12,501 nt of DNA from a virus, in the UHGV virus genome UHGV-1654647. One strand, written 5' to 3'. Both the position numbers and the translations under genes were made by a program. The notes beneath the pieces were generated by a model, which did not search any database, was not told the DNA's origin, and saw only the letters and a program-made list of their open reading frames with translations. Below, piece after piece: positions 5,122 to 12,501 of this stretch. Numbering within the stretch: the stretch's first letter is position 1; every line of letters starts with the position of its first letter.

Positions 5122-5547
5122 ATGAAGAAATTATCCCTTTCACTGATGCTGAACGTGTCGCTGGCGCTGATGCTGGCACTGTCCCTGATTTACCCGCAGA
5201 GCGTGGCCGTCAATTTTGTCGCCGCCTGGGCGATTCTGGCGACGGTTATCTGTGTGGTTGCCGGTGGTGTCGGCGTGTATGCCACTGAGTATGTGCTGGA
5301 ACGCTACGGGCGGGAGCTGCCGCCGGAATCGCTGGCCGTGAAGATTGTCGCGTCGCTGTTTTTGCAGCCGGTGCCGTGGCGCAGACGGGCGGCGGCTCTG
5401 GTGGTGATGGTGGCGACGTTTATCTCGCTGGTCGCTGCCGGGTGGATTTTTACCGCGCTGATTTACCTCGTGGCGTCGGTGTTCTTCCGGTTGATACGCA
5501 CGGCCTGTCGTCAGCGTTTTGAGGGGCGGGAACCATGTCAAAGCTGA
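5122..5547 (+). CDS. lysA: Lysis timing/regulator membrane protein LysA (141 aa)
   Basis: ORF 5122..5547, strongly hydrophobic with multiple predicted transmembrane segments; located between endolysin and spanin genes as in P2. Confidence 0.8.
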   Translation: MKKLSLSLMLNVSLALMLALSLIYPQSVAVNFVAAWAILATVICVVAGGVGVYATEYVLERYGRELPPESLAVKIVASLFLQPVPWRRRAAALVVMVATFISLVAAGWIFTALIYLVASVFFRLIRTACRQRFEGREPCQS

Positions 5548-5960
5548 TGATTGTGCTGGTTGTGTTGTTATCACTGGCGGTGGCCGGTCTGTTTCTGGCG
5601 AAGCATGAAAACGCCAGCCTGCGCACCTCGCTGGACAGGGCGAACAACGTCGCCAACGGGCAGCAGACGACCATCACCATGCTGAAAAATCAGCTTCATG
5701 TTGCCCTCGCCAGAGCAGACAAAAACGAGCTGGCGCAGGTGGCACTGCGTCAGGAACTGGAGAACGCGGCGAAGCGTGAAGCACAGCGCGAGAAAACCAT
5801 CACGAGGTTACTGAATGAAAACGAAGATTTTCGCCGCTGGTACGGCGCTGGCCTGCCTGATGCTGTGCGCCGGTTGCACCAGCGCCCGGCCTGCACCGAC
5901 GCCAGTGATTGTCGCCAACGCCTGCCCGAAAGTGAGCCTTTGCCCGATGCCGGGCAGTGA
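5535..5960 (+). CDS. lysB: Inner-membrane spanin (Rz-like) LysB (141 aa)
   Basis: ORF 5535..5960; N-terminal TM anchor (MSKLMIVLVVLLSLAVAGLFLA) followed by a charged, coiled-coil-like periplasmic region; start overlaps lysA end by 13 nt. Confidence 0.83.
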   Translation: MSKLMIVLVVLLSLAVAGLFLAKHENASLRTSLDRANNVANGQQTTITMLKNQLHVALARADKNELAQVALRQELENAAKREAQREKTITRLLNENEDFRRWYGAGLPDAVRRLHQRPACTDASDCRQRLPESEPLPDAGQ

Positions 5961-6105
5961 CCCGGAGACGAACGGCGATTTAAGTGCCGATATCCGACAG
6001 CTTGAGAACGCGCTGGCACGCTGTGCCAGCCAGGTAAAAATGATTAAACACTGTCAGGACGAAAACGATGCTCAAACCCGACAGCCTGCGCAGGGCGCTG
6101 ACTGA
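5815..6105 (+). CDS. lysC: Outer-membrane lipoprotein spanin (Rz1-like) LysC (96 aa), in +1 frame overlapping lysB 3' end and R 5' end
   Basis: ORF 5815..6105; signal peptide with Cys-containing lipobox-like motif (MKTKIFAAGTALACLMLCAGC) then Pro-rich mature part (TSARPAPTPVIVANACPKVSLCPMPGSDPE); overlapped architecture as in P2 lysB/lysC. Confidence 0.75.
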   Translation: MKTKIFAAGTALACLMLCAGCTSARPAPTPVIVANACPKVSLCPMPGSDPETNGDLSADIRQLENALARCASQVKMIKHCQDENDAQTRQPAQGAD

Positions 6106-8939: not shown

Positions 8940-9543
8940 TTCGCGACTGCTGCCGACCGGCTCATCACCGCTTGAAGTTGCCGCCGCAAAAGCCTGTGCG
9001 GAAATTGAAAAAACGCCGGTCAGTATTCGTGAGCTGTGGAACCCGGACACCTGCCCGGCAAATCTGCTGCCGTGGCTGGCGTGGTCATTTTCGGTTGACC
9101 GCTGGGATGATAAGTGGCCGGAAGCGACAAAACGCGCTGTTATCCGCGATGCGTATTTCATTCACTGCCATAAGGGCACTATAGGCGCAATCCGACGTGT
9201 GGTGGAGCCGCTCGGCTATCTGATTGAGGTGAGGGAGTGGTGGCAACTCAACGAGGAGCCGGGGACGTTCCGTATCGTTGTTGGCGTGCTTGAGCAGGGT
9301 ATTACCGAGGAAATGTATCAGGAGCTGGAGCGCCTCGTTGCTGATGCAAAACCGGCAAGCCGCCATCTGACGGGACTGGCTATCAGTTTAAGTACAACCG
9401 GCAACATTTTTGCCGGTGCGGGATGCTATCACGGCGACGCCCTGACGGTTTATCCCTACACCCCGGAGGCCATTATTGTCGGAGGGGATTATTTCCCGGC
9501 CTCGGCCATTCATTTAATTGATAACCTGAGAGTAAACGCATGA
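8932..9543 (+). CDS. I: Baseplate protein I (203 aa; apparently longer than the 176 aa I recall for P2 gpI)
   Basis: ORF 8932..9543, MSDSRLLPTGSSPLEVAAAKACAEIEKTPVSIRELWNPDTCPANLLPWLAWSF...; start overlaps J stop, stop overlaps H start (ATGA). Confidence 0.82.
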   Translation: MSDSRLLPTGSSPLEVAAAKACAEIEKTPVSIRELWNPDTCPANLLPWLAWSFSVDRWDDKWPEATKRAVIRDAYFIHCHKGTIGAIRRVVEPLGYLIEVREWWQLNEEPGTFRIVVGVLEQGITEEMYQELERLVADAKPASRHLTGLAISLSTTGNIFAGAGCYHGDALTVYPYTPEAIIVGGDYFPASAIHLIDNLRVNA

Positions 9544-11087
9544 CAGTGAAATACTACGCCATTCTGACTAATCAGGGCGCGGCACGGCTGGCTAACGCGA
9601 CGATGCTCGGCAGTAAGCTGAATCTGACGCAAATGGCCGTTGGTGATGCGAATGGTGTCTTGCCGACACCAGACCCGGCACAGACAAAACTGATTAATCA
9701 GAAACGCATTGCACCGCTGAATCTTCTGAGTGTTGACCCGAACAACCAGAGCCAGATTATTGCGGAGCAAATCATCCCTGAGAACGAGGGCGGATTCTGG
9801 ATCCGTGAGATTGGGCTTTATGATGATGAAGGCGTACTCATTGCGGTGGCGAACTGCCCGGAAACGTACAAACCGCAGTTGCAGGAAGGCAGCGGTCGTA
9901 CCCAGACTATCCGCATGATTCTGGTTGTCACGAATACCGAAGCCATCACGCTGAAAATCGACCCGTCGGTGGTACTGGCGACCCGTAAATACGTGGATGA
10001 TGAAGTTCTGGAATTAAAGCTGTATGTGGATGACCAGATGAGAAACCACATTGCCGCACAGGATCCTCATACCCAGTATGCACAGAAACATAATCCGACA
10101 TTTACCGGAGAACCAAAAGCGCCGACGCCTGCCGCAGGAAATAACACCACGCGGATTGCGACCACTGAGTTTGTTCAGGCCGCTATTACCGCTCTGATTA
10201 ACGGTGCGCCAGCCACGCTGGACACACTGAAAGAAATTGCCTCAGCCATTAACAATGACCCGAAATTCAGCACCACCATTAACAATGCGCTGGCACTGAA
10301 AGCTCCGCTGTCGAGTCCCGCACTTACCGGAACGCCAACAGCACCTACTGCGGCACAGTCGGTCAACAATACACAGATTGCCACCACGGCTTTTGTGAAA
10401 TCAGCAATTGCGGCAATGGTGGGTTCTGCCCCTGCGGCACTGGATACACTGAATGAACTGGCGGCGGCGCTGGGGAATGACCCTAACTTTTCAACAACAG
10501 TGCTTAATGCACTGGCAGGCAAACAACCGCTGGACAATACGCTGACTAATTTGAGTGGAAAGGATGTTGCCGGTCTTCTCGCATACCTTGGTTTGGGAGA
10601 AGGCTCTGCATTACCTGTTGGTGTCCCTGTTCCGTGGCCTTCAGCCACTCCGCCAACAGGCTGGCTGAAATGCAATGGTGCAGCTTTTTCTGCTGAAGAA
10701 TACCCGGAACTGGCAAAAGTTTACCCGACAAATAAATTGCCTGATTTACGTGGTGAGTTTATTCGTGGCTGGGATGACGGGCGGGGGATTGATACAGGTC
10801 GCTCTATTTTAAGTATTCAGGGATATGCAACGGAGGATCATGCTCATGGATTACCGTCAAGATCCACGATTGTGACTGATGCAACTATTAATTTCTATTT
10901 TGATGAAAGCTGGGTAAATAGTGGCACTGACATTATCAAAAGAGGAAACACAAACGATGCCGGATTACCAGCACCGGATTATGGAACCTTTAAAACATAT
11001 AAACAATCAGTGGCTGGTTTAGGTGCCGCAGCCTCAGAAACGCGTCCGCGTAATATTGCATTTAACTATATCGTGAGGGCAGTCTGA
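9540..11087 (+). CDS. H: Tail fibre protein (515 aa): baseplate-attachment N-terminus, two tail-fibre repeats, crossover site, then collar-like receptor-binding C-terminus
   Basis: ORF 9540..11087. N-terminus has P2 gpH-like motifs (EGGFWIREIGLYDDEGVLIAVANCPETYKPQLQEGSGRTQT). C-terminus has tail-collar-like motifs (PVGVPVPWPSATPPTGWLKCNGAAFSAEEYPELAKVY, LPDLRGEFIRGWDDGRG). Much shorter than the 669 aa I recall for P2 gpH. Confidence 0.88.
   Translation: MTVKYYAILTNQGAARLANATMLGSKLNLTQMAVGDANGVLPTPDPAQTKLINQKRIAPLNLLSVDPNNQSQIIAEQIIPENEGGFWIREIGLYDDEGVLIAVANCPETYKPQLQEGSGRTQTIRMILVVTNTEAITLKIDPSVVLATRKYVDDEVLELKLYVDDQMRNHIAAQDPHTQYAQKHNPTFTGEPKAPTPAAGNNTTRIATTEFVQAAITALINGAPATLDTLKEIASAINNDPKFSTTINNALALKAPLSSPALTGTPTAPTAAQSVNNTQIATTAFVKSAIAAMVGSAPAALDTLNELAAALGNDPNFSTTVLNALAGKQPLDNTLTNLSGKDVAGLLAYLGLGEGSALPVGVPVPWPSATPPTGWLKCNGAAFSAEEYPELAKVYPTNKLPDLRGEFIRGWDDGRGIDTGRSILSIQGYATEDHAHGLPSRSTIVTDATINFYFDESWVNSGTDIIKRGNTNDAGLPAPDYGTFKTYKQSVAGLGAAASETRPRNIAFNYIVRAV
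10092..10307 (+). repeat. Tail-fibre repeat unit 1 (protein-level, about 72 aa) within H
   Basis: NPTFTGEPKAPTPAAGNNTTRIATTEFVQAAITALINGAPATLDTLKEIASAINNDPKFSTTINNALALKAPL aligns residue by residue with unit 2; the DNA copies are diverged. Confidence 0.7.
10311..10532 (+). repeat. Tail-fibre repeat unit 2 (protein-level, about 74 aa) within H
   Basis: SSPALTGTPTAPTAAQSVNNTQIATTAFVKSAIAAMVGSAPAALDTLNELAAALGNDPNFSTTVLNALAGKQPL; same motif order as unit 1 (Pro/Thr linker, NNTxIATTxFV, APAxLDTLxEuAxAuxNDPxFSTTuxNALAxK). Confidence 0.7.
10576..10601 (+). repeat. Left crossover site of invertible segment (gix/hix/cix-like 26-bp site) inside H
   Basis: TTCTCGCATACC-TT-GGTTTGGGAGAA: two imperfectly palindromic 12-bp half-sites around a central TT; resembles recalled gixL TTCCTGTAAACCGAGGTTTTGGATAA and hixL. 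Its 3' 15 nt are repeated exactly, inverted, at 12447-12461. Encodes LLAYLGLGE in the H frame. Confidence 0.7.
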
Positions 11088-11689
11088 TGCATAAAGCAAT
11101 ATTAAATAGTGAGCTCATTGCAACAAAGGCAGGGGATGTTACCGTTTATAACTATGATGGTGAAACACGGGAATATATTTCCACTTCAAATGAATATCTT
11201 GCCGTTGGTGTCGGCATTCCGGCATGTTCCTGTTTAGATGCCCCTGGCACACATAAGGCTGGTTATGCAATCTGCCGTTCTGCAGATTTTAACTCATGGG
11301 AATATGTGCCAGACCATCGCGGTGAAACGGTCTATAGCACCGAAACAGGAGAATCAAAAGAAATCACCGCTCCGGGTGATTACCCTGAAAATACAACCAC
11401 TATCGCCCCATTAACGCCATATGATAAATGGGATGGTGAGAAATGGGTGACGGATACCGAGGCACAGCATAGCGCCGCAGTAGATGCAGCAGAAGCACAG
11501 CGCCAGTCGCTGATTGATACTGCAATGGCTTCCATCAGTCTGATTCAACTGAAATTGCAGGCCGGACGTAAACTGACGCAGGCAGAAACAACCCGGCTTA
11601 ACGCTGTGCTGGATTACATTGACGCGGTGACGGCAACAGATACCAGCACCGCGCCGGATGTCATCTGGCCTGAACTGCCGGAGGCGTAG
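11087..11689 (+). CDS. G: Tail fibre assembly chaperone (Tfa family, 200 aa), partner of the currently expressed H C-terminus
   Basis: ORF 11087..11689; start overlaps H stop (TGATG); C-terminal Tfa-type motif (NAVLDYIDAVTATDTSTAPDVIWPELPEA); position equivalent to P2 gene G, but 200 aa versus the 175 aa I recall. Confidence 0.85.
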   Translation: MHKAILNSELIATKAGDVTVYNYDGETREYISTSNEYLAVGVGIPACSCLDAPGTHKAGYAICRSADFNSWEYVPDHRGETVYSTETGESKEITAPGDYPENTTTIAPLTPYDKWDGEKWVTDTEAQHSAAVDAAEAQRQSLIDTAMASISLIQLKLQAGRKLTQAETTRLNAVLDYIDAVTATDTSTAPDVIWPELPEA

Positions 11690-12104
11690 GCCATTCAATA
11701 TCTGGCGCACCGGAAGTATCGACCAGTTCCAGTGCGTCCAGGTAATCCAGCCACAAATTATATTGCGCCAGTTCGTCACCTTTCAGACGACCAATAGCTG
11801 CTTTGCCAGGCCATTGCTTACTGTTCATATATTCGTTGGCATTATCAATAAGATTTTGCTTTTGAGCTGTGGCAAGGAGTATTGCTTCTTCAGGAGCCAT
11901 TGGTGGAATATCAACCCACTCAGGTTGTCCATCATCATTTGCACCGCGCGCTTTCCCTTCAGGTGGTGTTCCTGAATAAGTCAAAAATATTTCATCAGAT
12001 ACTGGCGTAATATCATCCGGTAAGCTGTCATATGAGCGATATAGCTCCAGCATATCTACCGGATAAAAAGCTAACGTCGTCCGTGAAAAATAATAATTAC
12101 TCAT
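11661..12104 (-). CDS. Alternative tail fibre assembly chaperone (Tfa family, 147 aa), convergent with G
   Basis: ORF 11661..12104 minus; MSNYYFSRTTLAFYPVD...; C-terminus YNLWLDYLDALELVDTSGAPDIEWPTPPAVQAR carries the same Tfa motif as G; 3' ends of the two chaperone genes overlap by 29 nt (11661-11689). Confidence 0.8.
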   Translation of the reverse strand: MSNYYFSRTTLAFYPVDMLELYRSYDSLPDDITPVSDEIFLTYSGTPPEGKARGANDDGQPEWVDIPPMAPEEAILLATAQKQNLIDNANEYMNSKQWPGKAAIGRLKGDELAQYNLWLDYLDALELVDTSGAPDIEWPTPPAVQAR

Positions 12105-12105
12105 A

Positions 12106-12501
12106 TCAGCACCCTATTGCAAACCAGCGAAAATTATAATTGCCACCAGAAGCATCACAGCGTAGAAGAAATCCTGTTCTGGTCATATTCCCTGCTGCCC
12201 CGGCAACAATTTTTCCGCCACCATTATCGTAGGACGTCACCACCTGAAAACATTGTGACGGAAAAGCGATTGTGAAATTCATCTCATTGCCTGTCGAGCC
12301 TACATAACCCGTACCTGCATCTCCTGCCCCCCATTGGATAATCAATCCTCCCGGTAACTTCTGATATCCCTTGCTGGCAATACTGTCAGAAAAAGAACTC
12401 ATATCCGGTATCTGACCTGAACCTGTTCCCACATCCCGTTTTGCCGCTTCTCCCAAACCAACGTTTATGAAAATGCAGAGATAACGGGCAAGTGGCATCA
12501 T
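12106..12501 (-). CDS. Alternative tail-fibre C-terminal receptor-binding cassette; probably start-less and expressed only when inversion fuses it to the constant part of H
   Basis: Minus-strand ORF running from the window edge to a stop at 12106-12108, 1 nt upstream of the alternative chaperone start; crossover site lies at codons NVGLGE; downstream Gly-rich sequence (AAKRDVGTGSGQIPDMSSFSDSIASKGYQKLPGGLIIQWGAGDAGTGYVGSTG...) unrelated to the plus-strand H C-terminus. The ATG ATG at 12496-12501 may be fortuitous. Confidence 0.65.
   Translation of the reverse strand: MMPLARYLCIFINVGLGEAAKRDVGTGSGQIPDMSSFSDSIASKGYQKLPGGLIIQWGAGDAGTGYVGSTGNEMNFTIAFPSQCFQVVTSYDNGGGKIVAGAAGNMTRTGFLLRCDASGGNYNFRWFAIGC
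12448..12473 (+). repeat. Right crossover site of invertible segment (inverted relative to 10576-10601)
   Basis: TTCTCCCAAACC-AA-CGTTTATGAAAA; its reverse complement TTTTCATAAACG-TT-GGTTTGGGAGAA shares the central dinucleotide and the whole right half-site with the left site; half-site TTCTCCCAAACC resembles the gix half-site TTATCCAAAACC. Confidence 0.7.

Follow-up and report, generated by a model that had tools for sequence, protein, structure and literature searches.

A probable silent C-terminal cassette of tail-fibre gene H in an invertible segment of a P2-like Escherichia coli prophage

Gene layout and crossover sites

The window, i.e. the whole 12.5-kb stretch of DNA that was analysed, corresponds to the late genes of an E. 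coli prophage of the P2-like (Peduovirus) type. Its genes, named after annotated relatives, run from the capsid scaffold through lysis and baseplate functions to the tail fibre. Many E. coli prophages match most of the window at about 97-98% identity, and a P2 record is 96.6% identical to it. In the lysis part, a lipoprotein-like ORF (5815-6105, MKTKIFAAGTALACLMLCAGC...) begins in another frame within a 141-aa ORF (5535-5960) and runs past its end, as is usual for the Rz/Rz1-type (LysB/LysC) genes of P2-like lysis cassettes.

The tail-fibre genes end the window (Table 1). The fibre gene H is composed of a constant N-terminal part, whose DNA is about 97% identical to that of P2-like prophages and of P2, and of a C-terminal cassette of the collar type. 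H also includes an internal tandem repeat of about 66 aa (10113-10310 and ~10329-10526, residues ~192-257 and ~264-329), the two copies being 61% identical (BLASTP E 5e-25). A second cassette, probably silent, stands on the other strand. Each cassette is followed by a Caudo_TAP chaperone gene of its own, the start of the 200-aa chaperone overlapping the H stop by 1 nt (TGATG) and that of the 147-aa chaperone lying 1 nt past the stop of the silent cassette, in line with the cognate chaperone that the initial annotation had attributed to each tip. The two chaperones share 38% identity over 85 aa. Their convergent genes have 29 nt in common at their 3' ends (11661-11689), and the conserved C-terminal motif LDYIDA/LDYLDA also corresponds to an inverted repeat of 18 nt (11608-11625 paired with 11734-11751).

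In Din-type systems (Gin/Cin/Pin/Hin), a crossover site comprises a 2-bp core flanked by two 12-bp half-sites, and the sites form an inverted pair with matching cores. In these systems, the segment adjoins the gene of a small serine recombinase including a Resolvase catalytic domain and an HTH, and a Fis-dependent recombinational enhancer acts in cis, located, in those that have been studied, within the 5' portion of the invertase gene. The segment described here is bordered by inverted sites of this type and exists in both orientations. Indeed, the best inverted repeat of the region pairs 10576-10602 with 12447-12473 and includes the two 26-bp sites, whose inner half-sites are complementary at 12/12 positions and whose cores, TT and AA, are in inverted orientation. 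The 14-mer TTCTCCCAAACCAA, consisting of the inner arm and the core, has exactly two copies in the window, at 10588-10601 and 12448-12461, on opposite strands and with 0 mismatches, so that the inverted segment initially proposed is found with a site at both ends. No further crossover site, as in multi-cassette, shufflon-like arrangements, was found across the window; as the 14-mer is present only twice there, the arrangement points to a two-state switch and not to a multi-cassette one.

The invertible segment spans 1.87 kb and carries, between the sites, the collar tip fused to H, its chaperone gene, the second chaperone gene on the other strand and the silent cassette. The crossover lies inside the fibre ORF and gives an in-frame fusion in either orientation, of 515 aa as found and of 467 aa after in silico inversion. 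The site sequence is that of the e14 P-segment repeats, both in the form quoted by PMC12529663 and in K-12 itself.

Table 1. Coordinates of the features in the tail-fibre region of the window
Feature	Position	Strand	Remarks
Tail-fibre gene H, 515 aa	9540-11087	+	PF12571 N-terminal fibre domain and PF07484 Collar
Constant N-terminal part of H (residues 1 to ~349)	9540-10587	+	Common to both fibre forms; PF12571 Phage_tail_fib, E 1.7e-62
Left 26-bp crossover site, TTCTCGCATACC-TT-GGTTTGGGAGAA	10576-10601		Within H; core dinucleotide 10588-10589
C-terminal cassette of H now expressed, collar type, 161 aa after GLGE	10588-11087	+	PF07484 Collar, E 1.4e-14; 97.6% identical to e14 StfE cassette
Tail-fibre assembly chaperone for collar cassette, 200 aa, TfaE-like	11087-11689	+	PF02413 Caudo_TAP, E 3.5e-33; 97.5% identical to e14 TfaE
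Tail-fibre assembly chaperone for silent cassette, 147 aa, TfaP-like	11661-12104	-	PF02413 Caudo_TAP, E 1.5e-28
Probable silent alternative C-terminal cassette of H, 118 aa and stop	12106-12462	-	PF21882, E 1.9e-18; fibre C-terminus expressed in AH01 and SW071614
Right 26-bp crossover site, TTCTCCCAAACC-AA-CGTTTATGAAAA	12448-12473		Core dinucleotide 12460-12461; identical to e14 site next to pinE
13 codons outside the segment (MMPLARYLCIFIN), extending the cassette frame to ATG-ATG (12496-12501)	12463-12501	-	Counterpart of e14 StfE/StfE2 N-terminus
TGGCAT, -24-like element of a sigma-54-type site before the invertase gene	12493-12498	+	Remainder of site and gene beyond window end

The probable silent cassette and the two orientations of the segment

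The minus-strand translation of 12109-12462 is VGLGEAAKRDVGTGSGQIPDMSSFSDSIASKGYQKLPGGLIIQWGAGDAGTGYVGSTGNEMNFTIAFPSQCFQVVTSYDNGGGKIVAGAAGNMTRTGFLLRCDASGGNYNFRWFAIGC, 118 aa, with the stop codon at 12106-12108. This translation equals the string quoted in the initial annotation, which had placed the cassette at 12106-12461. The location and the stop were correct, but the upper end is out of frame, being one base short of the codon boundary (12461 is the last core base, and 12462 is needed), and a literal translation of 12106-12461 runs into stops. The cassette had been described as Gly-rich and Cys-containing and is so, with 23 Gly among 118 residues (19.5%, versus 7.4% in the whole of H) and three Cys. 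It is also shorter than the collar cassette as announced, although the figures of 118 and 161 aa mixed two counting methods, the lengths being 113 versus 161 aa after the common GLGE or 118 versus 166 from the core codon. Complete fibres measure 467 aa with the silent cassette and 515 aa with the collar one. The two domains are indeed unrelated, as BLASTP reveals no similarity between the cassettes beyond the crossover-encoded residues and their Pfam families differ.

The cassette starts with a linker, GLGEAAKRDVGTGSGQIPDMSSF, followed by a Gp53-like_C lectin-type foot domain at 12109-12360. The first ~25 residues after the crossover, those of the linker, are nearly invariant across otherwise different cassettes. 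The domain family PF21882 is recognised at residues 48-131 of the ORF 12106-12501 with 67.2 bits (curated cut-off 24.9 bits), the full 84-position profile being covered, and 97 homologues were retrieved from databases. Sequence matches in the PDB are 9zd7, 6cxb, 6cl5, and 4mtm, of which the best is the short tail fibre gp92 of Pseudomonas phage P7-1 (9zd7, E 1.7e-6), while 6cxb and 6cl5 are R1 pyocin fibres and 4mtm is AP22 gp53.

An AlphaFold2 monomer model built from 62 homologues is almost entirely composed of beta-strands, with a mean pLDDT of 86.9. The top five Foldseek matches of this model in the PDB are 4mtm, 6cxb, 6cl5, 6ct8, and 6cl6 (E 5e-7 to 3e-5, query-normalised TM 0.62-0.67, probability 1.00), followed by SLL-2, Helix pomatia agglutinin, the phi297 tailspike, and discoidin II. 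The same list of structural neighbours has been reported for the R-pyocin foot domain, which has a jellyroll lectin fold (PMC6363177). As modelled, the cassette has the jellyroll, lectin-like fold of AP22 gp53 and of the R-pyocin foot. The relation to a fibre or adhesin fold that had been anticipated is found at both levels, the matches to AP22 gp53 and to the R1/R2 pyocin foot coming from the model as well as from the sequence.

Exchanging the segment between the cores in silico yields an uninterrupted 467-aa H, which corresponds to the annotated fibre of E. coli AH01 (WP_176285434.1) at 467/467 residues. The same prophage is found in AH01, its I, H, invertase and sheath genes standing in the same order, but the segment is flipped, with 99.9-100% identity, the alignment breaking at window positions 10588 and 12464. 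The constant part of H is identical in this strain and is fused there to the gp53-like cassette, a 300-nt synthetic junction of both parts finding a 100% match. The collar cassette of AH01 is the silent one, adjoining the invertase gene behind the same short leader. The two orientations are thus documented by comparison of different strains and not by switching within one culture.

The same segment, with 99.5% identity, is also present in E. coli SW071614, in a prophage located at dusA, where the cassette forms the expressed C-terminus of a fibre of 214 aa. That prophage is unrelated to the one of the window, having baseplate genes of the Mu/e14 type and a short fibre. Finding the same segment in it implies that whole switch modules move between phage types. 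In complete E. coli genomes, the exact cassette is joined to a P2-type H in only 3, versus 345 for the H::collar junction, many of which may belong to non-invertible prophages.

Some assemblies display a further peculiarity near the invertase gene. Contigs end 67-205 nt upstream of this gene in 11 of about 33 invertase-relative loci (L008, L012, L013, L015, L018, L019, L022, L023, L024, L025, and L034), and in at least eight of them (L008, L012, L013, L018, L019, L022, L024, and L025) the crossover-site sequence is found at or near the contig end. Contig ends at crossover sites are the outcome expected from an assembler when a culture holds both orientations.

The invertase-proximal region and alternative readings

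The invertase gene itself lies outside the window, starting about 28 nt past its end according to the closest relatives, E. coli SCU-316 (L001) and L002. The protein of these relatives counts 197 aa, includes Resolvase and HTH_7 domains, and shares 88% identity with PinE. In relatives of the invertase from about 30 genomes, the regions preceding the gene were compared, loci L038-L084 (~64% identity) being left out. In this set, TGGCAT is conserved exactly 35 nt before the invertase start and is mostly followed by GC at the -24/-12 spacing of sigma-54 (TGGCAT-N5-xxGC). The element is shared by e14 pinE and by relatives from Citrobacter, Enterobacter, Kluyvera, Trabulsiella, Mangrovibacter, and Dryocola, whereas the -12 of the prophage type studied here is GG and not GC. 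The sigma-54-type element was also located at 6098-6113 of L001 and at ~4651-4666 of L004. A low-stringency sigma-54 ChIP-seq peak with the motif ATGGCATCATTCCTGCTT has been recorded upstream of pinE and is marked as predicted in EcoCyc; pinE appears in S2 Table of that study only, the main text being without it (PMC4591121).

This region also bears on the claims that the cassette has no start of its own inside the segment and is expressed only after inversion. The first of these stands, because none of the in-frame internal start codons of the cassette has a usable ribosome-binding site. The second has to be qualified in view of the in-frame ATG-ATG located outside the segment. The cassette could indeed be other than silent, the 131-aa ORF 12106-12501 being translated from this ATG and acting alone on the adsorption of T2 and other phages, like the claimed e14 StfE2. 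Such a function would be compatible with the cassette role. StfE2 is the e14 leader joined to the gp53-like cassette after inversion of the P segment; with its gp53-like domain at residues 47-125, it has been reported to block T2 adsorption when made from a plasmid (PMC12529663, 2025). The 131-aa ORF, with its domain at a comparable position (residues 48-131), is the structural counterpart of StfE2, and the e14 layout is identical. Moreover, an in-frame TAA stands 4 codons upstream of the ATG in L001 and L002, GGAG abuts the ATG, RefSeq annotates the 130/131-aa ORF as a 'gp53-like domain-containing protein', and dozens of database homologues of 116-146 aa carry the same MP... leader.

Several features nevertheless argue against translation from this position. 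GGAG is separated from the ATG by only 0-3 nt. The scans of the segment and of the invertase-proximal region for sigma-70 promoters gave as many sites as shuffled sequence, none of them reading into the cassette from outside. The leader, MPFACYFFIFIN in e14, is mostly set by the crossover site, and its other residues vary non-conservatively (LARYLC, VSRNRC, DKEEIF, FERLTI). In addition, ATG-CCA is the reverse complement of the conserved TGGCAT. Among 11 relatives with this motif, 4 (Citrobacter sp. wls619, Mangrovibacter phragmitis, Trabulsiella odontotermitis, and Citrobacter pasteurii) preserve it although their leader frame runs into a stop after 5-10 codons. These sequence comparisons make it most likely that the ATG arises incidentally from the control region of the invertase and is not kept as a start codon. 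Independent expression is not supported, since no sigma-70-like promoter reads in from outside and the ATG is retained despite a stop 5-10 codons on. A fibre tip devoid of the baseplate-attachment part cannot join the virion, no conserved export signal is evident by eye in the 131-aa ORF, and the published StfE2 activity is that of plasmid expression. By analogy with StfE2, lysogens with this orientation would use the ATG at 12496-12501 to make the cassette as an independent protein of 131 aa, masking receptors as a defence against other phages; we consider both this role and the translation on which it would depend improbable. If it were true, inversion would toggle an anti-phage factor as well as the fibre tip.

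Somewhat less probable still is the view of the cassette as a frozen relic, drifting and never expressed beside a dead switch. It would agree with the window holding no visible invertase, with the GG at -12 of the sigma-54-like site, and with the frameshifted fibre, chaperone and cassette genes of the best full-length relative, SCU-316. However, the window has uninterrupted ORFs for H, the cassette and both chaperones, the two sites share identical inner arms, and the invertase (WP_010835463.1) is intact and identical in SCU-316 and AH01. Furthermore, the AH01 prophage differs by nothing but the flip, from which a recent inversion is deduced. The frameshifts of SCU-316 are annotated between 3141 and 6103 of this locus, in H, both chaperone genes and the cassette, with intact neighbouring genes, and could be either a homopolymer assembly error or real decay. 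Finally, a chance antisense frame deprived of coding meaning, which only the mechanical nature of ORF lists would suggest, is refuted by the Pfam score (E 1.9e-18), the 97 homologues, the confident model with its Foldseek matches to fibre feet, and the expression of the cassette as a fibre C-terminus in other genomes.

Proposed mechanism and comparison with known systems

The preferred reading, to which we give a probability of about 0.9, sees in the cassette a silent, alternative C-terminus for the fibre protein H of a P2-like prophage, borne by an invertible segment of the e14 P, Mu G, and P1 C type. In the proposed mechanism, a Pin-type serine invertase, presumably encoded just past the window end, would pair both 26-bp sites, cut their 2-bp cores (TT at 10588-10589, AA at 12460-12461) and flip the segment. 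In the present orientation, H would be made of the constant part and the collar tip (515 aa) and be co-translated with the 200-aa chaperone, whereas after inversion, the constant part would be ended by the Gp53-like lectin-type foot (467 aa), with its own 147-aa chaperone 1 nt on. As inversion gives two tip states, the phages released from a lysogen population would carry either one or the other and adsorb to different surface structures.

Because the invertase, as well as the enhancer, lies outside the window, we can only infer that this copy still inverts. The fibre is presumably trimeric and chaperone-dependent, and the difference in fold suggests that the two tips bind different receptors, probably carbohydrates. 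For R-pyocins, truncated fibres with the foot domain bind target strains by subtype, the foot has been proposed to hold LPS-binding sites, and the fibre is soluble only when the chaperone is co-expressed.

An invertible fibre cassette of this kind is already known, the domain family being curated and the expressed fusion protein being present in RefSeq. Invertible fibre tips became textbook matter with Mu, P1, and e14, and measurements of inversion already exist for P2-like prophages, so the present case is of little importance beyond correct annotation. In this respect, the 130/131-aa 'gp53-like domain-containing protein' entries located beside invertase genes in many enterobacterial genomes would be silent fibre cassettes and not stand-alone genes. 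The P2 pseudotyping paper makes no mention of invertible cassettes; the cassette together with its chaperone would represent a ready-made natural module for retargeting P2-type particles. Also, as the fibre exists in two states, a single assembly does not suffice to deduce the host range of such a prophage.

In the Mu G segment (S/U, S'/U', Gin) and the P1 C segment (Cin), a serine invertase flips two alternative fibre C-termini, each with its chaperone, behind a constant N-terminus, which results in two host ranges. The phage backbone and the cassette sequences differ from those of the window, and the likeness is one of principle only.

The foot of R1/R2 pyocins and the C-terminal domain of gp53 of Acinetobacter phage AP22 belong to the same Pfam family as the cassette (PF21882), with the same jellyroll lectin-like fold, and are similarly located at the distal end of a myovirus-type fibre with a chaperone gene next to it. 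However, identity is only 21-32%, the loops forming the binding surface are not conserved, and these fibres, unlike the one described here, do not switch by inversion.

For P2-like prophages of EPEC and for e14, inversion has been shown by sequencing and PCR, the orientations coexisting (PMC4272514). The P2-like prophages of EPEC E2348/69 are of the same type and have the same type of switch. One of their loci displays three repeats and three alternative C-termini, whereas the window has only two sites (PMC4272514).

The e14 P segment of K-12 (stfP-tfaP/tfaE-stfE, pinE) is a close counterpart. Its crossover sequence is identical to that of the window, and its four genes are arranged likewise, the invertase gene being divergent from the silent cassette. 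The short leader ORF and the TGGCAT ahead of the invertase gene are also common to both; stfE of e14 is annotated as a pseudogene. The collar cassette and TfaE are about 97.5% identical in protein to those of the window. At the DNA level, 94% identity to the P segment is found over 1281 bp (~10585-11865), which include the collar cassette, its chaperone gene and the 3' part of the second chaperone gene, whereas the remainder of this last gene and the gp53-like cassette (11866-12447) have no DNA match in e14. As its ends match e14 unequally, the segment is a mosaic, related to the P segment and lodged in a fibre gene of the P2 type, and the position of the boundary implies recombination within the second chaperone gene. 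Accordingly, the C-terminal 70 aa of e14 TfaP and of the 147-aa chaperone are 77% identical, whereas their N-terminal halves differ. The homology to e14 fibre variants that had been envisaged is partly borne out: the cassette can be aligned with that of e14 StfP, but with 38% identity it represents a different allele. The host element also differs, being here a full P2-like prophage with a 350-aa constant part of H, whereas the constant part of e14 StfP has about 97 aa. Lastly, the tip expressed is the gp53-like one in K-12 and the collar one here.
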